A DNA stretch of 64,000 bases from a virus (IMGVR_UViG_3300028886_000037:128001-192000), one strand, 5' to 3'; numbered from the stretch's first letter, positions 13,875 to 27,342 are shown. Notes: generated by a model not told the origin, from the letters alone. Made by a program: numbers and translations.

Positions 13875-14045
13875 TGAAGGCTCCTTGTTGAAGTTACATG
13901 ATCAATATAGGTATTTCCCTGAGAAATCTAAACCCCTAAAATCAAGAAAATCTACAAAAATAGGCAGACACAGTCACTGCCATGTCTGCCTGTATCGTCC
14001 TATTTGGCCCAGAACGATATTTGTTTTTCGGCTTTATCTGTGTAG

Positions 14046-14130
14046 TCCTCCAGGAGAGACTCGAACTCTCACGGGCATATTGCCCACCTGCCCCTCAAGC
14101 AGGCCCCTATACCAATTCGGGTACCGGAGG
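14046..14130 (-). tRNA. tRNA-Leu(GAG)
   Basis: cloverleaf, CCTGC-TT GAG GG-GCAGG, long variable arm. Confidence 0.9.
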
Positions 14131-14134
14131 AAAA

Positions 14135-14277
14135 CGAGATTCATTTTAGCGGACCGCCTCCTTTAACCACTTGGATATCTCCGCGAATGAGGTTGTTATG
14201 CGGAGAGACAGGATTCGAACCTGCGAAGGCGCAAGCCAGCGGTTTTACAGACCCTGGGAATTGCTGTTAGAATCTCT
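14135..14277 (-). ncRNA. ACAGCA-scaffold RNA E1 carrying circularly permuted tRNA-Tyr(GTA)
   Basis: GAGATTC/GAATCTC terminal stem + ACAGCAA; tRNA 3' half precedes 5' half. Confidence 0.8.
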
Positions 14278-14279
14278 AG

Positions 14280-14352
14280 CAGGGAAGACAGGATTTGAAC
14301 CCATACCTCGCAGATTTGGAGTCTCGTGTGCTGCCAGTTGCACCACTTCCCT
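14280..14352 (-). tRNA. tRNA-Trp(CCA)
   Basis: CT CCA AA loop; AGGGAAG/CTTCCCT, G73; imperfect anticodon stem. Confidence 0.8.
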
Positions 14353-14469
14353 GAATGCCTCTTTTGATCAATTTCAGAACTTGATCCTGCTGGTGGTAGT
14401 TTTCGATCACAGTGAAGTATCTCGAATTCACTGCTCTCTAGAGCAGAGGCTGAACCTTATCATTCCATA

Positions 14470-14542
14470 TTGCCCGTGATGGACTCGAACCACCGAATAC
14501 ACGAGTCAGAGTCGTGTGCCTTACCAACTTGGCGAACGGGCA
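14470..14542 (-). tRNA. tRNA-Gln(CTG)
   Basis: CACGA-CT CTG AC-TCGTG. Confidence 0.9.
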
Positions 14543-14549
14543 GAAAAAC

Positions 14550-14932
14550 ATGATAGGGACGCCGATCGTTGCTCATTTAAGGCTTATTGATCAGCCGCTG
14601 CTTCGTGTCTCTTCTCTCTTGATCCGAATAGCAGCTTACAAAAGATCAGTCAACGGTTTCTCGTTGACGCTATCTGGTGTGACCAGCACTATCTCTATTC
14701 TTATTAGAGCAAGCACCAAGTTCTTCGTCTTGGAACTAGTAGAGACTGGCATGACCTTACTGAGCAGTTTGCCCAGGAGTTAGACCGATGTTCTGACCAT
14801 CAGCCAAGGGAGCTGAGATTCAAGCTGTGCTGCTCAGCTCTCGCCCTGTCCTCGTTAGCCAAGGCAATTTCCAGTTGCTCTACGCTGCATCGGTTTGTAG
14901 GAATTAAGCTTTAGAGTTGCTGTGCCTATCAT
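14550..14932 (-). ncRNA. ACAGCA-scaffold RNA E2 with ~360-nt structured cargo
   Basis: ATGATAGG/CCTATCAT stem + ACAGCAA; internal hairpins; no minus-strand ORF. Confidence 0.6.
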
Positions 14933-14936
14933 TAAG

Positions 14937-15069
14937 AATCTCTGATGACGCATTACTGAGCTATCCTTTACGCGTTCTCAGCCACTATTCCGCAACTTAT
15001 GCTACTGCACTAGCCCCAAAAGGATCTACCTTGGACGGGCTTTTACTTACATCATCTTCATCAGTGATT
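14937..15069 (-). ncRNA. GATGTAAGTA-type stem RNA, copy 1
   Basis: AATCACTGATGA/TCATCAGAGATT outer stem; motif shared with 20624-20677. Confidence 0.45.
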
Positions 15070-15072
15070 TAG

Positions 15073-15146
15073 TCCCATAGCCGAGATTCGAACCCGAACT
15101 TCATGCGCCACAAGCATGCGTGCTAACCAATTAACACTACTGCGGG
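15073..15146 (-). tRNA. tRNA-His(GTG)
   Basis: CATGC-TT GTG GC-GCATG. Confidence 0.85.
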
Positions 15147-15151
15147 GATGT

Positions 15152-15238
15152 GTAACGAGAGCGTGATGGTGGGCAGTTTAGAACTGCCAAGAATCCTTGC
15201 GGATCACCATCTTCATTTCACCATCACGTTCTCGTTAC
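15152..15238 (-). ncRNA. long hairpin enclosing a T-arm-like module
   Basis: 20-bp outer stem enclosing ATCC-GCAA-GGAT and GGCAG-TTCTAAA-CTGCC. Confidence 0.55.
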
Positions 15239-15242
15239 TTAG

Positions 15243-15316
15243 TAGCTCTGTCGGGACTTGAACCCGAATTTCTAGCTTGAGAGGCTAACGAACTAAACCA
15301 GTTATTCGACGGAGCC
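15243..15316 (-). tRNA. tRNA-Glu(CTC)
   Basis: TTAGC-CT CTC AA-GCTAG. Confidence 0.9.
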
Positions 15317-15321
15317 AAAGA

Positions 15322-15440
15322 CGAGATTCACTTTAGCGGGACTCGAACCCGTAACCTCTTCACTATTTCAGTGAAGTGCTCTACCAATTGAGCTATTTTC
15401 CCAACGGCGGAAAAAACCAGAGTTTGCTGTTGGAATCTCT
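15322..15440 (-). ncRNA. ACAGCA-scaffold RNA E3 carrying an acceptor-less tRNA body
   Basis: GAGATTC/GAATCTC + ACAGCAA; D arm, CTTCACT-GAAAT-AGTGAAG arm and T arm, no acceptor stem. Confidence 0.75.
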
Positions 15441-15442
15441 AG

Positions 15443-15514
15443 AGCACCTAGCGAGGATCGAACTCGCGACTACAGTTTGGAAGACTATCATGTTAGCCAC
15501 TACACCATAGACGC
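15443..15514 (-). tRNA. tRNA-Gly(TCC)
   Basis: CT TCC AA loop, U73. Confidence 0.9.
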
Positions 15515-15520
15515 GGATGT

Positions 15521-16210
15521 TTAATTTATAGAGGAGAGGGTGGGATTCGAACCCACGGAGGTTTCCTCCTCATATAATTTAGTAAAATCATTTCCATACT
15601 TATTTTCGACGTATTCTAAGTATGGCTTAATCTCTCTTTTCGTAATAATCGAAAGCTCTTTAGGAAATTGGTCATATTTTGCTTGCCACTGCTTAGACCA
15701 ATATCCCTTCAATTCAACATATTTTCCATCGACTATGAAGTCTGGAAGATAGTTATATTCTTTGCCTTCGAATATGTACTTAAACTTTTCTTTGTTCCTT
15801 TCGAATTTTATTCCGTGTTCAAGATTATATATCACGTATGCTAGTTCCCAAGAGCTGTCGCAGAAATATCCTTTATACCAACCCTTCTTTCCACGACCAG
15901 ATCCTTTACGATAGCCACCTAATGTGTGCCTAATCTTATTAGTCTCTTTTATCTTTTGTCGTGTTTCTTCCGTTTGGGCATGTTTCTTATATTCGACCCT
16001 TTCTGGATTCTTATAACATCTTTTTTCATGGAATCTCAGTGTATGCTTATATTCAAAATAGTTTCCGCAAAATTTACAATTTCCACCTTTATTAAATAGG
16101 AATTTCTTATGCTCTTTTTTATGATTTTCAGACTTATGTTTCTGAAGATCTCTTCTACTAGTACCGACATATTCACAGAATGAACATGGCCAAGTGTATG
16201 ATAATCTCAT
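15521..16210 (-). CDS. Zn-finger + PD-(D/E)XK homing endonuclease
   Basis: C2H2 fingers; DSSWE..YLPDF..VELKGY; AT-rich; reads into the tRNA fragment. Confidence 0.85.
   Translation of the reverse strand: MRLSYTWPCSFCEYVGTSRRDLQKHKSENHKKEHKKFLFNKGGNCKFCGNYFEYKHTLRFHEKRCYKNPERVEYKKHAQTEETRQKIKETNKIRHTLGGYRKGSGRGKKGWYKGYFCDSSWELAYVIYNLEHGIKFERNKEKFKYIFEGKEYNYLPDFIVDGKYVELKGYWSKQWQAKYDQFPKELSIITKREIKPYLEYVENKYGNDFTKLYEEETSVGSNPTLSSIN
15532..15571 (-). pseudogene. 3' fragment of disrupted tRNA-Ser
   Basis: variable arm, T arm and CCTCTCC, complementary to GGAGAGG at 16391-16397. Confidence 0.8.
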
Positions 16211-16230
16211 ATTACTCTCTCAAAGAAGTA

Positions 16231-16318
16231 AAGCGGGTGTCCGATTCGAACGGACGAGAGGTTTTAACCTCTGCTTGGGTTCAGGCCAAGTGCGATAAAC
16301 CAACTCCGCCAACCCGCC
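16231..16318 (-). tRNA. tRNA-Ser(TGA), nested inside the insertion
   Basis: CTTGG-CC TGA AC-CCAAG, long variable arm. Confidence 0.85.
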
Positions 16319-16354
16319 ATAAATTATTTATACAATCAAGACTAGTGCTTTTTG

Positions 16355-16397
16355 CCAGTTTCAAATCCGGATCCATAAACCACTCGGACACCTCTCC
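16355..16397 (-). pseudogene. 5' fragment of disrupted tRNA-Ser(TGA)
   Basis: GGAGAGG-TG-TCCGAGTGGTTTATGGA-TCCGGA TT TGA AA CTGG, then unrelated sequence. Confidence 0.8.
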
Positions 16398-16404
16398 AAA
16401 GTAG

Positions 16405-16492
16405 AGGCGGGTGCAGGATTCGAACCTGCGGCTCCTTTATGGGGAGCAACTCGTTAGCACCGAGCCGGTTTAGACCACTCACCCAACCCGCC
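16405..16492 (-). tRNA. tRNA-Ser(GCT)
   Basis: GCTCG-GT GCT AA-CGAGT, long variable arm. Confidence 0.9.
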
Positions 16493-16495
16493 ATA

Positions 16496-16569
16496 TCCAC
16501 CCGCTAGGACTTGAACCTAGAACCTCGGGGTTATGAGTCCCTTGCACCAACCAATTGTGCTACAGATGG
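16496..16569 (-). tRNA. tRNA-Met or Ile2 (CAT)
   Basis: CT CAT AA loop. Confidence 0.8.
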
Positions 16570-16574
16570 GAATC

Positions 16575-16707
16575 AAGATGTCATCTGTGCTCCCGGGGCT
16601 GGACTCGAACCAGCAGCCTTCTGGCGTCTTACTGAGGAAGGTCCTCTGCGACAGCCGTTCTAACCAGTTGAACGTACCCTGGAAAATAGAATTGCGGTTG
16701 ACATCTT
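16575..16707 (-). ncRNA. scaffold RNA E4 (ACCGCAA variant) carrying an Asn-like tRNA with an expanded anticodon arm
   Basis: AAGATGTCA/TGACATCTT stem; D and T arms intact, anticodon arm enlarged by about 20 nt. Confidence 0.7.
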
Positions 16708-16714
16708 TTATTAG

Positions 16715-16761
16715 AGCTACCAGCAGGACTCGAACCTGCGAAGGGATGAACCCAGCAGATT
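16715..16761 (-). pseudogene. orphan 3' tRNA half (U73, long variable arm; Cys-like)
   Basis: AATCTGC-variable arm-GCAGG TTCGAGT CCTGC-TGGTAGC-T, starting at the endonuclease stop. Confidence 0.75.
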
Positions 16762-17374
16762 ATAACAATTTACTGAGGATTCCCTCTATATAGGTTCGTT
16801 TAGCCTCTTTAGGAAGACGTTGGTATTCGGACCAATTACAGCGTCCTAATAGCGTCCATCCTTGCTCCTTTAAATTCTCTGTTCTTTCTTCATCATGTAA
16901 TTTTCCTTTTGATGTGTAATGCGTCTTGCCATCAACTTCAAAATAAAGCTTTTTATCAGGCCATGCAAAATCTAACCAATAGGGTTTTACATAATAGTTA
17001 TTTTCAAATTTTACGTTCTCATTTGTAAAAATGTTAAACCAACTTTGCTCAGCATAACTTCGTTTTCGTCTTCCTATCCATGAACTTGCGCGTCCTTCTC
17101 TATGTGCTTTTTTCATTCCGAGAGAAATTCTTTTGCATATAGCTTCGGTGTTTTTATGTCCTTTACATCGCAGCTTATTTGGATTCTTCTCGCAATGCAT
17201 TTCATGTCTAGTCATTTCACCACGAGTAATATGCTTGATTTTACCGCAGTATTTACATTTTAAATCATATTTAGGTGCTTGGCCATTTTTAATCTTATGT
17301 TCTTCGCTTTTATGCTTATAGAGCTTTCTACGTGATTCGATTTCAGCACCGCAATGTTCGCATACCCAAATCAT
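16760..17374 (-). CDS. Zn-finger + DUF559/Vsr-like homing endonuclease
   Basis: YWLDFAWP..FEVDGKTH. Confidence 0.85.
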   Translation of the reverse strand: MIWVCEHCGAEIESRRKLYKHKSEEHKIKNGQAPKYDLKCKYCGKIKHITRGEMTRHEMHCEKNPNKLRCKGHKNTEAICKRISLGMKKAHREGRASSWIGRRKRSYAEQSWFNIFTNENVKFENNYYVKPYWLDFAWPDKKLYFEVDGKTHYTSKGKLHDEERTENLKEQGWTLLGRCNWSEYQRLPKEAKRTYIEGILSKLL

Positions 17375-17396
17375 TTTTATTTCTCCATTTTAGCTT

Positions 17397-17478
17397 TATA
17401 GTCGTTCCAGCGACCATATTATTTATAGCAGTTAGAAGAACTGGAGATGTTCCTCAGCTGGCTGGAACCAGTTGTCCC
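17397..17478 (-). promoter_or_regulatory. structured endonuclease leader copy 2
   Basis: GGGACA-hairpin(TTCCAG)-CTGA-hairpin-CTAAC-TATAAATA-hairpin(CTGGAA). Confidence 0.7.
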
Positions 17479-17487
17479 ACTATAGTA

Positions 17488-17575
17488 AGCGCTCAGTTGG
17501 ATTTGAACCAACGTGGAGATTTCTCTCAGCGGCTTTGCAGGCCGTGGTCTTCGACCAGGCTCGACCCATGAGCGC
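17488..17575 (-). tRNA. tRNA-Cys(GCA) with long variable arm
   Basis: CGGC-CT GCA AA-GCCG, U73. Confidence 0.85.
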
Positions 17576-17586
17576 ATATTGTTTAG

Positions 17587-17660
17587 TACTCCGTCCAAGA
17601 TTCGAACTTGGATCAAGGGCTTCGTAGGCCCGTATGCTGAGTCCATTACACCAACGGAGC
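17587..17660 (-). tRNA. tRNA-Arg(ACG)
   Basis: CT ACG AA loop. Confidence 0.9.
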
Positions 17661-17665
17661 ATAGT

Positions 17666-17781
17666 CAAGATAACGTCTTTTGAGCTGAGTCCTGAGCCAC
17701 TAGACGACACCGGTATACGCCGATGACTGGATTCGAACCAGTGTTGCAGCTTTGGGATAGTGAAGATGCTGTTGTTATCTT
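17666..17781 (-). ncRNA. ACAGCA-scaffold RNA E5 carrying a circularly permuted tRNA (CCC, Gly-like)
   Basis: AAGATAAC/GTTATCTT; TCCCAA-AGCTG, T arm, acceptor closed by loop, D arm, CAGCT. Confidence 0.8.
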
Positions 17782-17785
17782 ATAG

Positions 17786-17868
17786 TCCTCCAGGAGGGAC
17801 TTGAACCCTCACGCCATTTCTGGCACCAGTTCCTAAGACTGGCGTGTCTGCGATTCCACCACCAGAGG
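17786..17868 (-). tRNA. tRNA-Leu(TAG)
   Basis: CCAGT-CT TAG GA-ACTGG. Confidence 0.9.
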
Positions 17869-17872
17869 ATAG

Positions 17873-17945
17873 TGCCACCCCTCCGTAACGATCGGAGATC
17901 CTCGGATTTTCAGTCCGTTGCATAGACCATCTTTGCTAGAGTGGC
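17873..17945 (-). tRNA. tRNA-Phe(GAA)
   Basis: CT GAA AA loop; atypical T loop ATCGTTA. Confidence 0.8.
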
Positions 17946-17950
17946 ATAAT

Positions 17951-18008
17951 CGAGATTCTTTTGTTTCTTAACCAAAAAGAAGATTTTAGAGTTGCTGTAA
18001 GAACCTCT
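17951..18008 (-). ncRNA. minimal ACAGCA-scaffold RNA E6
   Basis: GAGGTTCTT/AAGAATCTC + ACAGCAA. Confidence 0.65.
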
Positions 18009-18011
18009 TAG

Positions 18012-18085
18012 TCGGCAACCTTGGACTTGAACCAAGAACCTCTGCCTTATCAGAGCAGTGCTCTAACCAATTGAGCTAGATGCCG
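18012..18085 (-). tRNA. tRNA-Ile(GAT)
   Basis: CT GAT AA loop. Confidence 0.9.
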
Positions 18086-18096
18086 ATAAAAAATTT

Positions 18097-18165
18097 CAAG
18101 ATCCATTTTTCTAACGTAGTCTGATTACCAATCGGATGTTATAAGAATTTTGCAGTTAGGATCTT
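18097..18165 (-). ncRNA. scaffold RNA E7 (ACTGCAA variant)
   Basis: AAGATCC/GGATCTT stem. Confidence 0.6.
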
Positions 18166-18171
18166 TAGTAG

Positions 18172-18200
18172 TCTCCGATCAGGGATTCGAACCCCGGACC
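18172..18200 (-). pseudogene. 3' fragment of disrupted tRNA (Val-like)
   Basis: T arm + ATCGGAG-A, pairing with CTCCGGT at 18963-18969. Confidence 0.8.
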
Positions 18201-18211
18201 TGAAACTTTTA

Positions 18212-18285
18212 TCTTCGACCTAGGACTTGAACCTAGAACATCCGTCTTGTAAGGGCGGCGCTCTAACCAATTGAGCTAGCCGAAG
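18212..18285 (-). tRNA. tRNA-Val(TAC), nested inside the insertion
   Basis: CCGCC-CT TAC AA-GACGG; overlaps the endonuclease stop. Confidence 0.9.
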
Positions 18286-18919
18286 TTACGAACGATTTAA
18301 TTGATGAAATTGCCTCTGAAGTATTTCTCATTATGTACTTCCAAGTCAATCTCAGACATTTCCAACCGTTCTCTTTGCAATAAGTGTCTTTTTCGACATC
18401 CATTGCTTTTCTGCTGGGCCATTCATGTTGAGATCCATCAATTTCCAGATAGATCTTTAATTCTGGCCAAGCAAAATCCATGAACCATTTGCCAAAATGA
18501 TATTCTTCAACAAATGGAAAATTAGAAAGCTCCGTTTCGAGTAACCTCTTTGTCCATTCTTCAGCATAAGATCTTTTACATTTACTTCTCGACGACCACC
18601 AGATTCCGCCATTTTCTTTTATCTGTTTCTTACGAATTTCAGATAGCTTCTTCTTTGTGGCTTCAGTATGTTTAGATCCCAAGCGTAAGGCATTTTCGCC
18701 TGAATACCTTTTGCTAAAAGTTTCACTTGCTTGTTTTACTCTCGGATCATTATCCTTAGTTAGTCCTTTGTTCCAAGAAGGATGAGATTTAGAAAAGCCG
18801 TGTTCATCTTTGTGATGTTTCTGGAGTTCTCGTCTCGTTCTACCAACGAACGGACAATACTTGCAGCACCAGTCACCAGATGCGTTTTTCTGTTTTCTCT
18901 CTTTCTCATATCTTCCCAT
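18263..18919 (-). CDS. Zn-finger + NUMOD3 + DUF559-like homing endonuclease
   Basis: SWNKGLTK; WFMDFAWP..LEIDGSQH. Confidence 0.85.
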   Translation of the reverse strand: MGRYEKERKQKNASGDWCCKYCPFVGRTRRELQKHHKDEHGFSKSHPSWNKGLTKDNDPRVKQASETFSKRYSGENALRLGSKHTEATKKKLSEIRKKQIKENGGIWWSSRSKCKRSYAEEWTKRLLETELSNFPFVEEYHFGKWFMDFAWPELKIYLEIDGSQHEWPSRKAMDVEKDTYCKENGWKCLRLTWKYIMRNTSEAISSIKSFVTSASSIG

Positions 18920-18933
18920 ATTTTATTTATAGG

Positions 18934-18969
18934 AAGGATGGCACTCTGAACCAGCTGAGTTAACCGGAG
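18934..18969 (-). pseudogene. 5' fragment of disrupted tRNA (Val-like)
   Basis: CTCCGGT-TA-D arm-CCATC-CTT, then TATAAATA. Confidence 0.8.
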
Positions 18970-18975
18970 AGATAG

Positions 18976-19049
18976 TGCCCCACCAAGGACTTGAACCTTG
19001 AACTCTCTGCTTAAGAGGCAGATACTCTAACCAATTGAGTTAGTGAGGC
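18976..19049 (-). tRNA. tRNA-Lys(CTT)
   Basis: TCTGC-CT CTT AA-GCAGA. Confidence 0.9.
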
Positions 19050-19055
19050 ATATAG

Positions 19056-19128
19056 TTCCGGTAGCAGGGATCGAACCTGCGACTTTCTCCGTATGAAGGA
19101 GATGCTCTACCAACTGAGCTATACCGGG
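19056..19128 (-). tRNA. tRNA-Met(CAT)
   Basis: TCTCC-TT CAT AC-GGAGA. Confidence 0.85.
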
Positions 19129-19198
19129 GGGAAATCCACTGGCAGTTTGTGAGATACTGCCTAAACTCCTGAGGGCTACCTCAGAAAGCTAAAAGATA

Positions 19199-19270
19199 CG
19201 AGATAGAGTGGCCTTGCGCCACGAAACCGCATGATGGAGCAGAGGGGTGAAACTTGCTGTGTCTATCTCA
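19199..19270 (-). ncRNA. ACAGCA-scaffold RNA E8
   Basis: GAGATAGA/TCTATCTC + ACAGCAA; GCAA tetraloop hairpin. Confidence 0.65.
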
Positions 19271-19277
19271 AATTTAG

Positions 19278-19351
19278 TAGCGCCATCGGGACTCGAACCC
19301 GAATTTCCGACTTGAAAGGCCGGTGAACTGAACCAGTTATTCGATGGCGCC
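19278..19351 (-). tRNA. tRNA-Glu(TTC)
   Basis: CT TTC AA loop. Confidence 0.9.
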
Positions 19352-19356
19352 AAAAG

Positions 19357-19465
19357 CGAGATACGTTCTTTGTGTATAGCCCATCTGACTTTCGTCAGAC
19401 TTGCAGCTTTTCAGCTTATGGATTCGAACCACTTACAGTAAGAAATCATTGCTGTTTGTATCTCT
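19357..19465 (-). ncRNA. ACAGCA-scaffold RNA E9 with a T arm and two GAAA hairpins
   Basis: GAGATAC/GTATCTC; GTGG-TTCGAAT-CCAT; AGCT-GAAA-AGCT; TCTGAC-GAAA-GTCAGA. Confidence 0.7.
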
Positions 19466-19595
19466 TTTTCAAATGTGTCAGATACGGCGGATTCGAACCG
19501 CGATCTCAGACGTTGCGACATCTGGGACTTTTTGCACCGTCTCCACGACGGGACCGAAGCTACCTGCTTGTCAGAAGAGATAGAGTTCGCAACCT

Positions 19596-20414
19596 CTAAA
19601 ACTTCCTATCGGTACATATCCTACGCTTAGTAGCGGGACCGGGACTAGAGTCCCGGTCAGAAATGCTAAAACTTTCTTGAATTTTGATAGTCTGTAATAA
19701 TCTGAAAATTTCGTTTTCTCTTTCAATTTTAGAAAGTTTTTGAAATTCAGACCATCTAATTCTTTTTAAGAGCATCCAACCGTTTTCTATTAAAAATTCC
19801 GTTCTGATCTTGTCGTGTTCGATACCTTCTTTAGTATAGTGCTGTTCTCCATCAACTTCAATGTATATTTTTGATTTAGTCCATGCAAAATCTAAAGTAT
19901 ATCGGCCAACTTGATGTTGAGTTTCGGCATCTGTAAATATAGTTTCAAAATACTCTTCAGCATAAGATTTTCTTTTGTTTAACCAATTACAGTGTGTACC
20001 GCTAAGATTTTTAATAGCTGCATCTGATAATTTCCTTTTAGTTTCATCCGAAGTTTTATGACCTTGCCAAATTTGCTTATTCGGATTTTCTTTACAAAAC
20101 TTTTCGTGTCTTGTTAAATCGCAAGCTCTTTTATAAATTAAACCACAGAATTGACAAGGTATGTTTAAATCTGGATGATAGCCATAGAATTTACCTTTGA
20201 TTTCGTTAATATGTCCTTCTTTGCGATGCTGTTGTAATCTACTTCGTGAATGAAAATCATTGCCACAAATTGAACATTTCCAAATTTTAGAATTCTTTTG
20301 TATTCCTCTATTCGGATTTTTAAGACACTGCTTAGAAATGTGTGTTCCTAATTGTGCCCCAGTAGTAAACTCCATGTTACAAAATTTACATATATGTTTT
20401 ATTTCCAATTCCAT
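19596..20414 (-). CDS. multi-Zn-finger + DUF559-like homing endonuclease
   Basis: three C2H2-like fingers; YTLDFAW..IEVDGEQH; start MELEIK after TATAAATA. Confidence 0.85.
   Translation of the reverse strand: MELEIKHICKFCNMEFTTGAQLGTHISKQCLKNPNRGIQKNSKIWKCSICGNDFHSRSRLQQHRKEGHINEIKGKFYGYHPDLNIPCQFCGLIYKRACDLTRHEKFCKENPNKQIWQGHKTSDETKRKLSDAAIKNLSGTHCNWLNKRKSYAEEYFETIFTDAETQHQVGRYTLDFAWTKSKIYIEVDGEQHYTKEGIEHDKIRTEFLIENGWMLLKRIRWSEFQKLSKIERENEIFRLLQTIKIQESFSISDRDSSPGPATKRRICTDRKF
19631..19657 (-). pseudogene. degenerate 3' fragment of initiator-type tRNA
   Basis: CCGGG..CCCGG-TCCCGCT-A, same 3' end as the intact fMet. Confidence 0.55.
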
Positions 20415-20453
20415 ATAGTATTTATAACATGAGCTAACCACTGCTCTAAATTA

Positions 20454-20537
20454 TAGCGGGAGCCAGAGTCGGACTGGCACAAGCATTATCTGTCCCTGGG
20501 TTATGAGCCCAGTATCTTACCATTAGACTATCCCGCG
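20454..20537 (-). tRNA. initiator tRNA-fMet(CAT) with enlarged variable region
   Basis: C1 mismatch; CTGGG-CT CAT AA-CCCAG. Confidence 0.8.
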
Positions 20538-20544
20538 ATAATAG

Positions 20545-20619
20545 TGGACCGTAAGGGAATCGAACCCTTGACATCCAGCTTGCAAAGCTGGCGCTCTACC
20601 AAAACTGAGCTAACAGCCC
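20545..20619 (-). tRNA. tRNA-Ala(TGC)
   Basis: G3.U70; TT TGC AA. Confidence 0.9.
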
Positions 20620-20623
20620 GAAA

Positions 20624-20677
20624 GAATCTGTGAATGGCTCTGACCTCGAAAGGTTCTCCGTACTTACATCACAGATT
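20624..20677 (-). ncRNA. GATGTAAGTA-type stem RNA, copy 2
   Basis: AATCTGTGA/TCACAGATT outer stem. Confidence 0.45.
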
Positions 20678-20681
20678 TTAG

Positions 20682-20754
20682 CTGTCCCACCTGGACTCGA
20701 ACCAGGGACGGGGTGATTAACAGTCACCTACTCTACCAACTGAGCTATGGGACA
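20682..20754 (-). tRNA. tRNA-Asn(GTT)
   Basis: GGTGA-CT GTT AA-TCACC, G73. Confidence 0.9.
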
Positions 20755-20771
20755 TTAAAGATAAAGCCGAA

Positions 20772-20812
20772 GATTTCAATATGCAGATCGGATTCTCGAT
20801 CCAGATCTTTTT
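20772..20812 (-). promoter_or_regulatory. boxB/boxA-like leader (also 24049-24087 and 26360-26395)
   Basis: AGATC..hairpin..GATCTGCATATTGA repeated three times ahead of tRNA runs. Confidence 0.6.
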
Positions 20813-20894
20813 TGTTTGATTCTAATATAGAAACTTCTTTCGGGTTTGTAAACCCTCTTTCTCAGAATTTTTTGAGAAAGTTGTTTATTTATAG

Positions 20895-20967
20895 CTCCCT
20901 GTGGACGACTTGAACGACCGACATCGAAATTACAAATTTCGCGTTCTACCAACTGAACTAACAGGGA
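20895..20967 (-). tRNA. tRNA-Thr(TGT)
   Basis: CGAAA-TT TGT AA-TTTCG. Confidence 0.85.
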
Positions 20968-21052
20968 ATAAGAGCGCTGAGGATATGAGTGAAAAGCTAT
21001 CTCGAGTTCACAGTTCATCGGATATCCTCTCTAAGCATCCTCATCTTCACGT

Positions 21053-21127
21053 GATCGACGAGTGGATTGGAACCACCGCACCAGGCCCCGAATGGGCCTG
21101 CGCTCTACCATGCTGAGCTACGAAGAT
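21053..21127 (-). pseudogene. aberrant tRNA-like element (Pro-like)
   Basis: D and T arms present; 7-bp anticodon stem with 5-nt loop; poor acceptor stem. Confidence 0.55.
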
Positions 21128-21156
21128 ACGTCCTTGAATTCAGACGCTTAGATTAG

Positions 21157-21240
21157 TGGGTAAGGTAGGATTCGAACCTACTAAGCCCGAAGGCAACGGC
21201 TTTACAGGCCGCCCCAACTCACCATCGTTGGCGCTTACCC
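21157..21240 (-). tRNA. tRNA-Tyr(GTA)
   Basis: GCGGC-CT GTA AA-GCCGT, long variable arm. Confidence 0.9.
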
Positions 21241-21528
21241 TTGTACGGCCGGTCATTTATAGTCTTGTGACCGAAGACTTTACCCAACTCACGCTTATGC
21301 CGTTATTTTTCGCGATAGAACCATCACATGTGATGGTAGAATCGAATTCAAGATTCCAGCGGCCTGGTCAGGATGCTTATGCCTATGCTCTCCCCTGACT
21401 CCTTCACAGCCTTCGTCCGCTTGTCTATACGGACTTCTGCTGATCAACCAGTAAGCGCCCTTCCATTGGATCCAATTGACGGCGAAGTAGCGCTCAATGT
21501 AGCGGCCTTTGCAAGGATGGCGACTCCA

Positions 21529-22230
21529 CTATTGCCAGAGTCTCTCCTTCAATTCATAGCGGGACCGATGGGATTCGAACCCACAGCCTCCAGCCTTATT
21601 TTCATAAAGCATTTCTATTCGTTCAGTCCCGTATTTTTTATAAACGTACTCTAAATACTTTTTCATCTCTCTTCTATATAGGACGATTAACGGATATTTG
21701 AAAGTTCTTAATTTTTCCTCCCATCTATTATTTCTACGTCCTTTTATTTCATAATATGTATCGCCTATTTTAAAATCAGGATAGTATTTATGGATTTCTC
21801 CATTGCTTACATATTCAAAGCCTATTTTATTTCTCTCAAATTCTATTCCGTGATCTAAATTATAAATTACGAAAGCTAATTCCCAACGTGAATTGCAATA
21901 AAAGCCTTTATACCATCCAGAATAAATAGTACCAGATTTTTCTCTATAACCACCGCATCCAGCAGCTTTAGAAGTCTCTCTTAACTTCTCTTTTAATTCG
22001 TCCGTCATTCTATGCTTTCTATAGCAATCTTTACAAAATCCGGTCGAATTACGATTATCTAAAGATTTTCCGCAGTCTTTACAAAATCTCTTTTCAGTTT
22101 TTGAAAATAGTTTTGATAGTCTTCTCTTTAGTTCTTCTGTTCTTATTCTGCTATTAGCGCATGCTCTTGAGCAGAATCTTCCGCTTCCAAAAGAGCCATC
22201 ATGCTCTTTTCCACATTTTTCGCAGATCAT
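21529..22230 (-). CDS. Zn-finger + PD-(D/E)XK homing endonuclease
   Basis: CEKCG..RFCSRAC; NSRWE..YYPDF..YEIKGR. Confidence 0.85.
   Translation of the reverse strand: MICEKCGKEHDGSFGSGRFCSRACANSRIRTEELKRRLSKLFSKTEKRFCKDCGKSLDNRNSTGFCKDCYRKHRMTDELKEKLRETSKAAGCGGYREKSGTIYSGWYKGFYCNSRWELAFVIYNLDHGIEFERNKIGFEYVSNGEIHKYYPDFKIGDTYYEIKGRRNNRWEEKLRTFKYPLIVLYRREMKKYLEYVYKKYGTERIEMLYENKAGGCGFESHRSRYELKERLWQ
21560..21595 (-). pseudogene. orphan 3' half of tRNA (Asp-like)
   Basis: GGCTGG-AGGCT-GTGGG TTCGAAT CCCAT-CGGTCCC-G73, inside the endonuclease 3' end. Confidence 0.75.
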
Positions 22231-22254
22231 ATAGCCTCTTTTAACTTTATTTTA

Positions 22255-22339
22255 ACGAGGATCCTTCCATATCCTCGTATTATTTATAGAGGTTAGATCG
22301 AATGGCGAATTCGATCAGGAGGTGGAAGCCTCTTGTCCC
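22255..22339 (-). promoter_or_regulatory. structured endonuclease leader copy 3
   Basis: GGGACA-hairpin(CTTCCA)-CTGA-hairpin-CTAAC-TATAAATA-hairpin(TGGAAG). Confidence 0.7.
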
Positions 22340-22348
22340 TCTTTTTAA

Positions 22349-22422
22349 CGATGCCGGCGAGATTCGAACTCGCGTATGTCGGTTAGACAGACCGATGTGT
22401 TAGGCCACTTCACCACGGCACC
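22349..22422 (-). tRNA. tRNA-Asp(GTC)
   Basis: TCGGT-CT GTC TA-ACCGA, G73. Confidence 0.9.
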
Positions 22423-22427
22423 AGAGA

Positions 22428-23290
22428 CGAGATAGTTTTTCTTACGCGCTCTACCAGTTGAGCTACCTCACAGCATGGCTGCAAGGACGTTAAAATACAC
22501 ATCTCAATAATATCTTCCTATTAGTAATTTATCAGAACTAAAAGCCGATGAATTACAAATATATTCTTTATATTTTGGTATATAACACTTAAATAATCTT
22601 ACAATTTCTGGCAAAAGAGGAATGTTTTCTAATTTTGCAAATTCTCTAATTGACTTATAATTTCCAGAATGGAAATAGTCCCATAATTCCCTTGCTCTAT
22701 TAAATGCACTTATTTTACTTTTGTTAAAGAGTATACTATTTTCTCCTCTAAATAGATTTCTTCCAAGAACCCAATCCTTATTAGGTAAAATTTTGAATTT
22801 TTTGCATTCTCCATTGATTCTATTCGTATACCATTTAGTTCCGTATTGTGAATTTTTATTTCCTTTTTGTTTCAATTTCATACTTTCAGAAACGTATTTT
22901 GCAAATTCTGTTCTAAGCTTTTCGTATGCTCTAGAATTCATATAACGACTCTTATCTTCTGTAGGATGTCCTCTCATCCTCCAGAAGGCATACATCATTT
23001 TTCTTCTCTCATCTGTTCCCTTCTTGAATATCTTTACCAATAGCCAATGACAGAGGAAATGCTCTCTAGCAGTCAAAGGAACTAAGTTATCACGTTGATC
23101 CGATCCTCCTAAAGAACTAGGAAGAATATGATGTTCTTCATAATAACCTTCCGGTTTTCCTCTTATCTTTGCCCTATATACTATTTTCAGATAAACTTTT
23201 CTATAATCCATGTATTATTTATACATTTCATATCTCGAACCCGCAACATCGGTCTTAACAGGACATTTGAGAGTTGCTGTAACTACCTCT
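22428..23290 (-). ncRNA. ACAGCA-scaffold RNA E10 (permuted Asn-like tRNA) interrupted in its T loop by an HNH gene
   Basis: halves 23234-23290 and 22428-22489; GAGGTAGTT/AACTATCTC stem. Confidence 0.75.
22504..23211 (-). CDS. HNH homing endonuclease
   Basis: EEHHILPSSLGGSD..NLVPLTAREHFLCHWLL; TATAAATA upstream. Confidence 0.9.
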   Translation of the reverse strand: MDYRKVYLKIVYRAKIRGKPEGYYEEHHILPSSLGGSDQRDNLVPLTAREHFLCHWLLVKIFKKGTDERRKMMYAFWRMRGHPTEDKSRYMNSRAYEKLRTEFAKYVSESMKLKQKGNKNSQYGTKWYTNRINGECKKFKILPNKDWVLGRNLFRGENSILFNKSKISAFNRARELWDYFHSGNYKSIREFAKLENIPLLPEIVRLFKCYIPKYKEYICNSSAFSSDKLLIGRYY

Positions 23291-23340
23291 AAAATTCAAA
23301 CTGACCCTACTCACCTCAACGCGTCTTATTGGCTTTCAGT

Positions 23341-23412
23341 TAGCGCATGCGAGACTCGAACTCGCAGCCAGCGGCTTTCGACCGCCCGTTCTTCCATTGA
23401 ACGATATGCGTT
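23341..23412 (-). pseudogene. aberrant tRNA-like element (GAA in a non-canonical loop)
   Basis: D and T arms present; GGCGG-TC GAA AG-CCGCT lacks U33. Confidence 0.55.
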
Positions 23413-23427
23413 ATCAGTTAAACACAG

Positions 23428-23500
23428 CGCTGGAAGACAGGCTCGAACTGCCGATCGTCTGCTTACGAAGCAGCTGCTCTACCAGCTGAGCTATTCCAGC
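23428..23500 (-). tRNA. tRNA-Thr(CGT)
   Basis: TT CGT AA loop. Confidence 0.85.
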
Positions 23501-23700
23501 GAATAAGAGTACCGGACCCGAGTTTCTTTCCAGAGCGTCCTCTAGTCTTACGCTCGGGTCCTAGATCAAATCGTGCAGTATGGCAGTGAGGTTGGTCTCC
23601 TTCTCACATCTACGGCGCTAATGCTTAAATCGACCAAAGTGTCGAACCGTGCTCTTTTTATAGACATCTAAGCTATGCCTTGCACAATGTTGATCGTTAG

Positions 23701-23774
23701 TCGGGCATGCAGGATTCGAACCTGCGACCTGGTGCTCCCAAAGCATCCGCTCTACCAGACTGAGCTAATGCCCG
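23701..23774 (-). tRNA. tRNA-Pro(TGG)
   Basis: TT TGG GA loop; CGG/CCG-A acceptor. Confidence 0.9.
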
Positions 23775-23959
23775 ATGACGCCAGTACTAATTCTTGCATG
23801 AAAGTTCCTGACTTGCGAATCTCCTATACTGAAAGAAAATATATCCGCGACGATCGGATGCACTTTGTAGTCCACGTCCAGAGTATGCAACCTCCAGAGC
23901 GTAGAGCCTCTGTTCTTACCACAGTTCATTTTCTATCGCCAGTGTGATCGGCCATTTAG

Positions 23960-24033
23960 TGGACACAGATGGGGTTCGAACCCATGACCCTCTGCTTGCT
24001 AAGCAGATGTTCTACCAGCTGAACTACTGGCCC
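23960..24033 (-). tRNA. tRNA-Ala(AGC) with bulged acceptor
   Basis: TCTGC-TT AGC AA-GCAGA; G3.U70. Confidence 0.7.
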
Positions 24034-24167
24034 ATAAGAAGTTTCCGGTTTTTCAATATGCAGATCCGGTTCTCGACTGGATCTTTTGTTGTTGATCAAA
24101 ATATACTAAAACGAAGCGGAGTTGTAAATACCTCCGCTTCAAAAAATTTGAATTTTTTTGATGGAGG

Positions 24168-24575
24168 TTACCTGATAGGATCCTTGAGCATGTTTAGATA
24201 CTTCAGAGAGCAGAAGGCATCCTTCAGAACGTGGCGCTTGTTGTAGTACTTGATCTGCCATTCGAACTTGCGGTATGGACGGTAACCGAGCAGCTGAGCT
24301 TCTGTGCCGTCTTCGCAGCGGAACCAATGACCGATAGGACTCTGACCTTCTAGCGAAGTTCCCTTGAGCATATCCTTGAGCTGATCAAGAACATAGCCTG
24401 GAATCTTTGCGTCTCCCGAGGCGTCTACTTCTGCCAGCTCTAGAATGCACTTAGCTTCGTAGTCGCTGTACTTGAATGAGATTCCGTTGAGACGGAGGTT
24501 GTTCTCCTTTGCCCAGTCCTTGAGCACCGGATTGAGTTGTTCGCGGAGAGAGTCGCACTTGCTAGAATTGAACAT
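24168..24575 (-). CDS. hypothetical protein
   Basis: ORF with AAGGA RBS after TATAAATA. Confidence 0.65.
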   Translation of the reverse strand: MFNSSKCDSLREQLNPVLKDWAKENNLRLNGISFKYSDYEAKCILELAEVDASGDAKIPGYVLDQLKDMLKGTSLEGQSPIGHWFRCEDGTEAQLLGYRPYRKFEWQIKYYNKRHVLKDAFCSLKYLNMLKDPIR

Positions 24576-24608
24576 GTCTTTATCCTTGTTGTGTTTGTTT
24601 ATTTATAG

Positions 24609-24699
24609 TTGAGCAGGCTGGATTCGAACCAGCGACGGAGGAACTTCCTCTCTAGTGGCTTCAAAGGCCACCGCCTTGACCAGACTTGGCGACTGCCCA
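24609..24699 (-). tRNA. tRNA-Gln(TTG) with long variable arm
   Basis: GTGGC-CT TTG AA-GCCAC; U1-A72. Confidence 0.8.
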
Positions 24700-24705
24700 A
24701 GATAG

Positions 24706-24788
24706 TAGCCGAGGAGAGACTCGAACTCTCACGAGGTTGCCCTCCATGAATTTTAAGTTCACTGCGTCTTCCGTTCCGCCACTCGGCC
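24706..24788 (-). tRNA. tRNA-Leu(TAA)
   Basis: CT TAA AA loop, long variable arm. Confidence 0.9.
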
Positions 24789-24794
24789 AGATTC

Positions 24795-24986
24795 TTAGAA
24801 GAACTGGCGTTGTAACTTGAGCTGGCGCTTCTCAGCTTCGATCTTGTTTCGTTCCTTCTTGACCTTTCCGAGATCGATGCCTGCCTGCTTAGCGAAGCTC
24901 AGAGCCTTCTTTGACTGCTTAGCCCAGCGAGCGTTCTTCTGTTCCATCGTCTCTTCGACTCGTTCTTTCTTTTCCTTCGGTTTCAT
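24795..24986 (-). CDS. small basic protein
   Basis: 63-aa Lys/Arg-rich ORF, GGAG RBS, late promoter. Confidence 0.6.
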   Translation of the reverse strand: MKPKEKKERVEETMEQKNARWAKQSKKALSFAKQAGIDLGKVKKERNKIEAEKRQLKLQRQFF

Positions 24987-25019
24987 AAGATCTCCAAGTT
25001 TTTAGTGTTGTATTTATAG

Positions 25020-25091
25020 TGCGGGTGGCGGGGTTCGAACCCACGACTCGAAGATTAAAATTTAGTACTCTACCAACTGAGTTACACCCAC
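25020..25091 (-). pseudogene. tRNA-Lys(TTT) with broken anticodon stem
   Basis: acceptor, D and T arms intact; CTAAA cannot pair with TCTTC. Confidence 0.7.
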
Positions 25092-25200
25092 GAGTTCTGC
25101 TTCTTTATCCAAGGGATGCAGACAGACCTTGTACGATGAACGGCAGTTTGGTGTGAGCTCGTTCGGGGTATCATGTGAGCTCATTGCCGTTCGCTCATAG

Positions 25201-25280
25201 TACGCCAGGCGGGCTTCGAACCCGCATTTGCAGCTCCAGTTACGGCTAACGGATTAGAAGTCCGACCCGGCTACTGGCGT
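25201..25280 (-). ncRNA. D-armless tRNA-Arg(TCT)-like RNA
   Basis: acceptor, anticodon and T arms present; D-loop-like AACTGGA hairpin in the variable position. Confidence 0.7.
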
Positions 25281-25289
25281 ATGTGTTTC

Positions 25290-25574
25290 TTAGACGCGAG
25301 ATCGAATCTTCTTGAGATCGAACTTCATCGCGGGATAGGTGCAGAAGCCAGAGAAGCCGCAGACTTCGTCGAGTTCTTCAGCTACGCCGTCTTCCGTGAG
25401 AACTTTCACGATGTCGGGCCAGTTGTTGTCGTCAACGAAAGCGCAGTCTTTGGGGAGCTTTTCGCTCTGCCCTTGCAGATAGACGGTAGCGACGCCGTAA
25501 GGACTGCCATCGTCGTTGTTCGCCATCACAGCTAGAGTCTGGCCGTAGTCGTATTTCGATCTTACCCATTCCAT
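25290..25574 (-). CDS. DUF4313-like protein
   Basis: AFVDDNN..SGFCTYP..F motif. Confidence 0.7.
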   Translation of the reverse strand: MEWVRSKYDYGQTLAVMANNDDGSPYGVATVYLQGQSEKLPKDCAFVDDNNWPDIVKVLTEDGVAEELDEVCGFSGFCTYPAMKFDLKKIRSRV

Positions 25575-25577
25575 GTG

Positions 25578-25919
25578 TTAGTCCTCCAAGAAGTCTTCGA
25601 AGTGTTCTTCAGTGACCGGTTCCACGTACTCGTAATTGTCGGAGTGAACCGTAGTGCCGAGGAAGGTCTTGAAGTTGTTGGACCAGAAGCTGTCGCCGTC
25701 CACGTAAGCGTAGTACTTCGGGAAGCAGCCGACCTTCTGGTAGACGTGCTTCATGAGAGCCTTGCCCTCATCCACGTCCTTGACCGTAGCTTCGATTGCG
25801 TCATCTTGGCAGATAACTCCGAGCCAGGTCATGCGGGCAGTCGGATTGACTTCTTTAGCCGCAGCCTGAAGTTCTTTGAGGTGATTGGTTTTGCCGATGA
25901 AGACGATTCGAAAAAGCAT
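25578..25919 (-). CDS. hypothetical early protein
   Basis: ORF after early promoter. Confidence 0.65.
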   Translation of the reverse strand: MLFRIVFIGKTNHLKELQAAAKEVNPTARMTWLGVICQDDAIEATVKDVDEGKALMKHVYQKVGCFPKYYAYVDGDSFWSNNFKTFLGTTVHSDNYEYVEPVTEEHFEDFLED

Positions 25920-26018
25920 AGCTTATTTCCTTGTTGAAGGTTTATCTCTTTTACATTGTAATTATAGCTTTTTCTCGACGTTTTGTAAACCCCAAAAATG
26001 AAGTTTTTTTCAAAATAG

Positions 26019-26091
26019 TCAGCGTGAGTGGGAACGATCCACTGACCTCACCGCCCCGAACGGTGCGCTCTACCAGCTGAGCTACACGCTG
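26019..26091 (-). tRNA. tRNA-Pro(CGG)
   Basis: CACCG-TT CGG GG-CGGTG. Confidence 0.9.
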
Positions 26092-26098
26092 AAATTAG

Positions 26099-26174
26099 CT
26101 GGGAAGGCAGGATTCGAACCTGCGATTTCTAGGGCATTACAGTGCCGTGGCATACCAGACTTGCCGACAACCCA
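26099..26174 (-). pseudogene. aberrant tRNA (Gln-like body, 6-nt CTGTAA loop)
   Basis: D and T arms present; mismatched acceptor. Confidence 0.55.
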
Positions 26175-26180
26175 ATGTAG

Positions 26181-26255
26181 TGGAGACGAAGGGAATCGAA
26201 CCCTTCACAGCCTGATTGCAAGTCAAGCTCGCCATCCTTGGTAACATGCATCCCC
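26181..26255 (-). tRNA. tRNA-Ala(TGC) copy 2, atypical D arm
   Basis: GGGGATG/CGTCTCC-A; CT TGC AA. Confidence 0.75.
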
Positions 26256-26259
26256 ATAG

Positions 26260-26342
26260 TCGGTACGGAAGGACTCGAACCTTCACGCCTTGCGGCATTC
26301 GATTTTGAATCGAACGTGTCTACCCTATTCCACCACGTACCG
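26260..26342 (-). tRNA. tRNA-Leu(CAA)
   Basis: TTCGA-TT CAA AA-TCGAA. Confidence 0.9.
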
Positions 26343-26404
26343 ATAAAGATAAAGCCGAATTGTCAATATGCAGATCTGCTTCACGAGCCGATCTTGTAGG
26401 TATC

Positions 26405-26439
26405 AAAAGAAAAAGAGGAAGTCGAACTGACTTCCTCTT
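26405..26439 (-). terminator. intrinsic terminator with a competing antiterminator
   Basis: AAGAGGAAGTC-AGTTC-GACTTCCTCTT-TTTCTTTT. Confidence 0.8.
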
Positions 26440-26466
26440 GAAATTTCGATACCAGATGGAAGTCAG

Positions 26467-26598
26467 CTATGGACTGATTGGCTTTGCTGCGATGTTGTTG
26501 TCTCTGCAGGCCAATTCAAAATCGAGTCCGCTATTCGGCGCAACAGCCAATTTGTAGTTGGCTTTGCCTTGATAAGATGTGATAGCGGTCAATTTCAT
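26467..26598 (-). CDS. 43-aa candidate leader peptide (not in ORF track)
   Basis: MKLTAITSYQGKANYKLAVAPNSGLDFELACRDNNIAAKPISP; stop abuts the antiterminator. Confidence 0.5.
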   Translation of the reverse strand: MKLTAITSYQGKANYKLAVAPNSGLDFELACRDNNIAAKPISP

Positions 26599-26692
26599 TT
26601 TTGTGTCCAGTGCTGTTTCCAGCTTGTTACGTTTTATTTATACGACAATATAGATAACTTTTTGTGCTTTTCGATGTAAAACTTTGTTTACA

Positions 26693-27121
26693 TTACTTGA
26701 CGGCGTAGATTCCAGCTTCCTTGAGCAGCTGTAGTGCAGACTCTAGCTCTTTGCTCTCAGTCTTTTGCGTTTGCGGCTGCTGCTGAGACTGTTGCGTCTG
26801 CTGCCCCTGTTGCTGTGCGGGCTTCTGCTCAGCTGCCTTCTTGACGTAGTCTATGACCTGCAGAGAGCCGTCGAACTTCTTTACGTCCTTCGGATTCTTC
26901 TGATCCTGAACGACATACGTGATGTCGCTGTTAGCGGTCATAGCGCTCACCTTGTAGATGACAGTGAATCGATCATTGAGGACTACGCCCTCTGCTACCT
27001 TCGTTCCCTTCGGCTTTACTTTGATTCCGGCCTTCTTAGCGTCAACGCATACAGCGTTGATCATATTTGCCATGAGGAACTGGACTGGATCTTTCTTGAA
27101 CTTGTCTACGTTGACGTGCAT
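26693..27121 (-). CDS. late protein with Gln-rich linker, candidate internal head protein
   Basis: SALQLLKEAG motif; TATAAATA at 27150. Confidence 0.6.
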   Translation of the reverse strand: MHVNVDKFKKDPVQFLMANMINAVCVDAKKAGIKVKPKGTKVAEGVVLNDRFTVIYKVSAMTANSDITYVVQDQKNPKDVKKFDGSLQVIDYVKKAAEQKPAQQQGQQTQQSQQQPQTQKTESKELESALQLLKEAGIYAVK

Positions 27122-27193
27122 TTGAAAACCTCTTTAGATTTGTACTTGTTATTTATAGAAAAAAGACTCTCAGTTTCCCGAGAGTCTTGATAG

Positions 27194-27266: not shown

Positions 27267-27342
27267 GTAGCGAGATCAGTGTTGTTGCACTTACTTCACC
27301 TGTGCGGTACATCGCAGCCTTTTCAACTTTATCTCTTTGTAG

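Follow-up and report, generated by a model that had tools for sequence, protein, structure and literature searches.

Why would a phage keep a broken and an intact copy of the same transfer RNA (tRNA) gene, with a nuclease gene among the pieces, at five places in a single tRNA array? The question is raised by a 64,000-nucleotide stretch of DNA, hereafter the window, that covers bases 128001-192000 of the 247,923-bp linear virus record IMGVR_UViG_3300028886_000037. The source is a T4-like phage of about 248 kb from the cattle rumen, with T4-type late promoters in its genome; the sequencing runs that contain the region are for the most part bovine gut metagenomes, and no close relative was found in the isolate phage database. 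The genome's 37 tRNA genes are all on the minus strand, between window positions 14045 and 27415. We consider it likely that each of the five places, at Ser, Cys, Val, fMet and Asp tRNA genes, holds a mobile homing cassette made up of a late promoter, a site-specific endonuclease gene and a divergent tRNA with the same anticodon as the gene that it interrupts.

Five tRNA genes are broken by nuclease cassettes

Each of the five units combines an AT-rich nuclease open reading frame (ORF; GC content 0.32-0.39, against 0.47 for the genome), an upstream TATAAATA (at 16325, 17420, 18924, 20419 and 22281), one intact tRNA gene and one or two tRNA fragments (Table 1). All of these features had been named in a sequence-only reading of the window and were recovered here, on the minus strand. 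TATAAATA, which that reading had placed upstream of every ORF, is found at all five; it is the genome's usual late-promoter motif, present in 55 copies, so it is not specific to the cassettes. Contigs from the probable source run span the cassettes with zero differences, which rules out misassembly. An RNA run, X3, also covers the ORFs; its contigs show neither expression nor strand and may hold DNA.

To place the fragments, we compared the window with related arrays (given here by handles beginning with L), fetched by way of the neighbouring NrdG gene and a gene for a 94-aa protein. In most of these relatives the 94-aa gene and a 63-aa neighbour gene are 95-99% identical in DNA. Strains that lack an ORF carry a single intact Ser(TGA), Val(TAC), fMet, Asp(GTC) or Cys(GCA) gene in the corresponding slot, and the ends of these genes match the remnants in the window exactly over 21-48 nt (9 nt for the fMet D arm). 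Because of these exact matches, the Cys, Asp, Val and fMet identities, for which the sequence-only reading had relied on acceptor, discriminator and arm features, can now be read from synteny. Most ORF-free relatives also behave as that reading expected: at each of the five sites they have the original gene unbroken, and the replacement is missing. The Ser cassette is absent from L074 and present in L075, two closely similar strains, and empty-site joints for Ser and Asp were found in a DNA run. The reciprocal state, a gene intact in the window and occupied by a cassette in a relative, occurs at Gln(CTG), Thr(CGT), Ser(GCT), Asn(GTT) and Ile(GAT). A search of viral contigs with a 22-nt Ser 5' pattern returned 61 loci, none with an extended match to the region. 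These alignments show that the cassettes lie within resident tRNA genes and break them, either in the anticodon loop or beside it.

Table 1. Features of the five cassettes and of a sixth nuclease insertion; identities are to the original gene of ORF-free relatives.
Feature	Window coordinates	Strand	Remarks
Ser 5' remnant of resident tRNA-Ser(TGA)	16367-16397	minus	31-nt exact match to the intact gene in L074/L079/L093; acceptor, D arm and start of anticodon stem
Probable older Ser(TGA) relic	16336-16358	minus	inferred; D-arm end and anticodon arm, stopping at base 36; similar left end in L075, L110
Late promoter TATAAATA, Ser cassette	16325-16332	minus	
Replacement tRNA-Ser(TGA)	16231-16318	minus	66% identity; C33
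Ser nuclease ORF, 229 aa	15521-16210	minus	runs into 3' remnant
Ser 3' remnant of resident tRNA-Ser(TGA)	15532-15564	minus	exact match to L074 over 15564-15527, 38 nt
Replacement tRNA-Cys(GCA), long-arm	17488-17575	minus	59% identity
Three-way-junction element, Cys cassette	17422-17484	minus	ends at TATAAATA 17427-17420
Cys nuclease ORF, 204 aa, DUF559/Vsr-like	16760-17374	minus	Pfam DUF559 35.6 bits, cut-off 20.6
Cys 3' remnant of resident tRNA-Cys(GCA), from position 40	16715-16758	minus	L074-L079 gene; 16758-16711, 48 nt including tail, exact against L074
Val 5' remnant of resident tRNA-Val(TAC)	18934-18969	minus	36-nt exact match to L074; stops at anticodon base 34, then TATAAATA at 18931-18924
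Val nuclease ORF, 218 aa, DUF559/Vsr-like	18263-18919	minus	DUF559 40.9 bits; stop codon within replacement tRNA
Replacement tRNA-Val(TAC)	18212-18285	minus	71% identity
Val 3' remnant of resident tRNA-Val(TAC)	18172-18199	minus	exact match to L074 over 18199-18167, 33 nt
Replacement long-arm Met(CAT), fMet slot	20453-20538 or 20454-20537	minus	59% identity
fMet D-arm remnant	20431-20448	minus	9-nt exact match to L074 over 20448-20440; TATAAATA follows at 20426-20419
fMet nuclease ORF, 272 aa, DUF559/Vsr-like with C2H2 zinc fingers	19596-20414	minus	runs into 3' remnant; DUF559 38.5 bits; zf-C2H2 over cut-off
fMet 3' remnant, T loop mutated	19631-19656	minus	21-nt exact match to L074 over 19646-19626
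Replacement tRNA-Asp(GTC)	22348-22423 or 22349-22422	minus	55% identity; U37
Three-way-junction element, Asp cassette	22283-22345	minus	ends at TATAAATA 22288-22281
Asp nuclease ORF, 233 aa, PD-(D/E)XK	21529-22230	minus	reading frame passes through 3' remnant; 38% identity to Ser enzyme
Asp 3' remnant of resident tRNA-Asp(GTC), from position 39	21560-21594	minus	21594-21555, 40 nt including tail, exact against the L079 gene
HNH nuclease ORF	22504-23211	minus	phrog_655, E 3.9e-40

The sequence-only reading had extended the Ser 5' half to 16355; the exact match to the resident gene ends at 16367, and 16358-16336 is probably a second, older relic. A whole tRNA is supplied in the Ser and Val cassettes. 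The other replacements could be 5'-end fusions: the fMet replacement has its first 10 nt in common with the original, and the Asp and Cys cassettes have no 5' remnant.

The same arrangement recurs at other slots and moves between arrays

We grouped the nucleases encoded within the tRNA arrays of the window and its relatives into types by clustering at 85% identity. For 16 of the 25 types, the remnant's best match and the neighbouring intact tRNA share an anticodon. Besides the five of the window, these are Gln(CTG), Arg(TCT), Thr(CGT), three of Leu(TAG), Lys(CTT), Ser(GCT), Asn, Leu(GAG) and Ile. Most 5' remnants stop between positions -4 and +2 relative to the anticodon. The break falls in the T loop at both sites of HNH type, one of which is in the window: all five cassettes of the sequence-only reading stand, but a sixth nuclease was missing from its list. 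This HNH ORF splits a permuted tRNA-like RNA at the T loop, between 23234 and 22489, and no replacement was seen beside it; the RNA is intact in L076, and a joint 22473-23234 was found. A homologue (45% identical) in L001 and L091 breaks Gln(CTG) at this very point of the T loop and does have a replacement.

Several cassettes are found joined to different resident alleles. The Val cassette occurs in L096 and L097, with a 92% identical protein, in an unrelated, differently ordered array; there the flanking halves come from another Val allele, their acceptor strands pair with each other, and the break lies no more than a base or two from that of the window. In L108 and L109 the Cys cassette has the same junction, and the 3' half belongs to an allele of the L073 type, not the L074 type. 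Likewise, the Leu(TAG) cassettes of L068 and L077 share their replacement and differ in their 5' halves. Such joining of cassettes to differing local halves would be expected of homing in which the halves of the recipient act as homology arms. The comparisons show the remnants to derive from the local resident allele and the cassettes to move between phage lineages, and the Val and Cys cassettes, at the same junction in different alleles, suggest repeated homing. The replacement travels with its own ORF into other arrays or alleles (Val in L096/L102/L109, Cys in L108/L109, Asp in L104), and the end of the ORF overlaps the replacement tRNA in the Val, Gln, Asn and Leu-GAG cassettes.

More distant homologues of the Ser enzyme are also associated with tRNA genes. 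Among 62 distinct viral homologues, 57 lie beside a tRNA, and where a tRNA abuts the stop codon it is a Ser tRNA in 25 of 34 cases. A GTCTTGATT-like motif, which resembles a Ser anticodon arm cut after base 36, lies at most 70 nt upstream in 16 of the 62, compared with 0.67 in shuffles. Lak phage B6 has a homologue within its tRNA region, where no clear remnant was seen.

The cassette enzymes retain nuclease motifs

The assignment of the ORFs to two nuclease families, PD-(D/E)XK and DUF559-like, is borne out by domain matches and conserved motifs. The Cys, Val and fMet ORFs all score above the DUF559 cut-off, keep D-F-A-W and E-x-D-G-x-x-H, and match 3HRL (E 2.8e-8). They also have weak matches to NUMOD3 and C2H2 modules (above the cut-off for the fMet zf-C2H2), not to NUMOD2. 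By these features they fit the Vsr-like domain of EDxHD homing endonucleases. I-Bth0305I, encoded in a group I intron of recA, joins NUMOD2 motifs to a C-terminal Vsr-like EDxHD nuclease (PMC3239194); the phage ORFs are like it in that DNA-binding modules at the N-terminus precede a Vsr-like nuclease domain in which Asp, Glu and His are conserved, and its structure, 3R3P, is absent among the matches listed for them.

The Ser ORF has N-terminal zinc-finger-like modules and a PD-(D/E)XK domain resembling T7 endonuclease I (1m0d, E 1.9e-6). The Asp ORF is likewise of the T7-endonuclease-I-like type. In the family of the Ser and Asp ORFs the PD...ExK motif is conserved: P156 and D157 are invariant, and E166 and K168 are each present in at least 90% of 83 sequences. 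In a predicted model of the Ser enzyme (predicted local distance difference test score, pLDDT, 85.5), small modules at the N-terminus are followed by an alpha/beta domain at the C-terminus; a fold search with this model gave weak matches, none at E<=0.001. Read from the alignments, the catalytic motifs of the cassette enzymes are intact. No window ORF has a GIY-YIG domain; a GIY-YIG ORF occurs only in the relatives L069 and L102.

A homing model and its alternatives

We propose that, during co-infection, the enzyme would cut the unbroken tRNA gene resident in a phage without the cassette, close to the anticodon, and that repair of the break would copy the cassette in, with the remnant halves and flanks serving as homology arms. 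The donor would escape cleavage because its own site is split and its replacement differs by 29-45%. The replacement would maintain tRNA function, so that splicing would be unneeded. Later the ORF may be deleted and the replacement left in the slot, a step that is partly documented below. The terms cleavage-immune tRNA and gene drive, which the sequence-only reading applied to this arrangement, describe properties that we infer.

Several observations weigh against this model. The 5' half is absent from the window for Asp and Cys, the junctions at Ser and fMet are ragged, and 9 of the 25 nuclease types lack a remnant of the same anticodon. A 5' half is detectable in only 8 of the 62 distant Ser-enzyme homologues, from which it follows that the scars usually erode or were never formed. 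The replacements of the window also occur alone: the Asp replacement is found, identical and ORF-free, in L064, L065 and L069, and the fMet replacement, again identical, in L001. Such lone alleles may predate the cassette.

Cys alleles of the replacement's type likewise stand alone, in L064, L068, L081 and L093. Since some of them occur without an ORF, replacement alleles are not exclusive to cassettes, and the expectation of the sequence-only reading that ORF-free relatives would lack the replacement fails for the Asp, fMet and Cys-type alleles. For Val the explanation is loss of the ORF: L001 retains the replacement and the 3' remnant together with the last stretch of the ORF (87% over 161 nt), and this stub shows that the ORF was lost after invasion. 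The lone Asp, fMet and Cys alleles may reflect either later loss or prior existence.

These lone alleles are an argument for a two-step origin, in which divergent alleles already segregate at each slot, perhaps under selection by host anticodon nucleases, a nuclease landed in one of them and recombination added another, so that the replacement would be a local compensation and not a co-evolved immune part. Such standing variation exists: in up to 12 strains, with neighbouring protein genes 95-99% identical, each tRNA slot has about three families of alleles (slots were assigned by order of occurrence, so a few duplicated anticodons may be misplaced). The unusual anticodon loops of two replacements (Ser C33, Asp U37) fit escape from tRNases (PMC10264068). 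We nevertheless think this origin unlikely: the same replacement accompanies the same ORF into different arrays and alleles, and ORF ends overlap replacements at Val, Gln, Asn and Leu-GAG. It also accounts for how a cassette arose, not for its spread, and is compatible with later homing. If no targeted cutting took place at all, illegitimate recombination between similar tRNA genes would have left the nuclease genes as passengers bracketed by halves. Orphan halves away from any ORF (in L001 after Asn, and Ile in L091) and the raggedness of the Ser and fMet junctions could be read this way, but the breaks lie in the anticodon loop and not in the conserved D and T arms where such recombination is expected, their position tracks the enzyme family, and the anticodons match in 16 types; we find this account improbable.

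Two further readings concern the tRNA itself. The strict pairing of enzyme and isotype, together with the two odd anticodon loops, would also suit proteins that attack the tRNA, or tRNA gene, of the host or of a co-infecting phage, with the divergent tRNA as antidote. Their domains are instead DNA-binding zinc-finger and NUMOD3-like modules with DNase folds, insertion into the phage's own gene would go unexplained, and any interference with DNA could come as a by-product of homing, which together make an attack on tRNA very improbable. Least credible of all, and close to discounted, is a reading of the cassette as an intron, with the two halves serving as exons of a spliced or split tRNA. The acceptor strands of the Ser and Val halves are indeed complementary. 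Splicing is made unlikely by the lack of any group I or II intron match (Rfam, E<=5), by the loss or mutation of bases around the anticodon and by the presence of the Ser and Asp empty-site joints in a DNA run; moreover, Asp and Cys lack the 5' half that would have to be joined, and RNA-run contigs cross the cassettes with no joint listed.

Homing of individual cassettes is thus the reading that we prefer. More tentatively, isotype-specific cassettes of several nuclease families may rewrite phage tRNA arrays slot by slot, invading, replacing and decaying to leave the tRNA behind, and it is possible, if doubtful, that this cycle and not host tRNase pressure alone yields the roughly three unrelated alleles of each slot.

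Relation to known mobile elements

Integrative elements insert in tRNA genes and restore their function by means of an integrase and near-identical attachment (att) repeats. They rebuild the same gene, whereas the cassettes of the window have neither an integrase gene nor near-identical att repeats, and each brings a single nuclease ORF and a full copy that is 55-71% identical. Nor do the cassettes have the ribozyme core and precise exons of a group I intron in a tRNA gene, such as the host of I-Ssp6803I. Like free-standing homing endonucleases, the ORFs lie outside any intron or intein and are optional among close relatives.

The closest phage case is SegB of T4 and T6, a free-standing GIY-YIG nuclease encoded in the tRNA array between intact tRNA genes, which recognises a T-loop motif of many tRNAs (PMC2330249, PMC2988022, PMC13096335). 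In intronless homing of this kind, the cleavage site lies hundreds to thousands of bases away from the gene of the free-standing enzyme (PMC2988022). The cassettes share with SegB a free-standing enzyme in a tRNA array, absence from relatives and targets in tRNA genes. They differ in that the insertion is not intergenic with a distant cleavage site: each cassette gene interrupts the very tRNA gene that is presumed to be its target and goes with a single isotype. Phage nuclease genes also travel with cargo alleles of essential genes in homing endonuclease gene islands (HEG-islands; PMC10448857), where the cargo consists of flanking protein genes; a broken tRNA with a nested replacement is not described in the available portion of that source.

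The closest published principle, an intron-free endonuclease within an essential gene accompanied by a divergent copy of the displaced part, is that of fungal mitochondrial elements that carry an endonuclease and a replacement gene end, in atp6 of Allomyces macrogynus and in atp6, atp9, cox2 and nad3 of Glomus (PMC3630166). There, as in the phage, the displaced native piece remains and matches close relatives. In the fungal case the insert brings no more than the 3' part of a protein gene, and a hybrid gene results, whereas the Ser and Val cassettes supply a whole tRNA; the fungal enzymes are LAGLIDADG or GIY-YIG and mitochondrial, and those described here belong to phages and are of DUF559, PD-(D/E)XK and HNH type. 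We found no description of whole-tRNA replacement cassettes in phages in the literature outside subscription papers. We regard the tRNA-replacement cassettes as a probable variant of intron-free homing.

If the homing model is right, a whole spare gene is a third route, beside introns and inteins, by which a homing endonuclease can reside inside its own target. It would also give a reason why phage tRNA genes vary far more than their flanks, which is now mostly credited to host anti-phage tRNases. In this phage group about 16 enzyme types are represented by paired alleles with and without the cassette, from which target and immune sequences could be read directly. Fragments of tRNA genes in phage annotations may be scars of such insertions.

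A three-way-junction RNA element

A 62-nt element predicted to form a three-way junction occurs three times on the minus strand of the window: in the Asp and Cys cassettes and at 2410-2470, where it precedes a second HNH homing endonuclease gene (1649-2359, minus) that lies just downstream of an NAD-dependent DNA ligase gene and is missing from this place in L064. It consists of an outer stem, GACA, a hairpin with a 6-nt loop, a second hairpin and CUNA, and 8 of its 16 pairs show compensatory change. Further copies are found in L064, L077, L091, L102, L104, L108, L109, L115 and L116 and in other phages, at or near late promoters and mostly ahead of nuclease genes. The element had no match in Rfam, and a pattern scan for the junction returned the known locus and apparent chance matches only. 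Theta (hepatitis delta virus-like) and hammerhead ribozymes did not fit when parsed by hand: for theta, a nested double pseudoknot in which P1 begins at the tRNA 3' end, the parse departs from the P1-P2-P3 order, and one copy has no upstream tRNA. The element could be a terminator, an attenuator or a ribozyme.

Other features of the cassettes and the array

The Asp cassette (22231-22345) and the Thr(CGT) cassette of L064 (about 3247-3362) share a leader and the first 20 or so codons; their nuclease domains and targets differ, which indicates a shuffling of modules. In L104 (3498-4505) an Asp cassette is followed by a second intact Asp(GTC), also with U37. In L068 (about 5395-5760) the truncated remains of two cassettes are fused, in the order of a Lys 5' remnant with promoter, a short chimeric nuclease ORF and a Phe 3' remnant, and are followed by an intact Leu(TAG) cassette.

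By a rough count, 27 of the 37 tRNA genes (14045-27415, minus) end in CTA in place of CCA, and none was counted with CCA; the CTA tail is absent from all five replacement tRNAs. At 25019-25091 (minus) lies a tRNA with a TTA anticodon, which would read the TAA stop codon, in a slot that holds Lys(TTT) in relatives; it is a candidate point mutant or ochre suppressor. Repeated stem-bounded RNAs lie on the minus strand at about 15320-15440, 16565-16705, 17665-17780, 17950-18010, 19190-19265, 19360-19460 and 22425-23300. Their 5' strand is followed by an ACAGCA-like motif, and several contain tRNA-like or circularly permuted tRNA-like cores; this region gave no more than weak matches to the Rfam family YrlA. 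Outside the window, an AT-rich ORF of 398 aa (G000 C1, 59787-60983) has an N-terminus that by eye resembles TnpB of the IS200/IS605 family.

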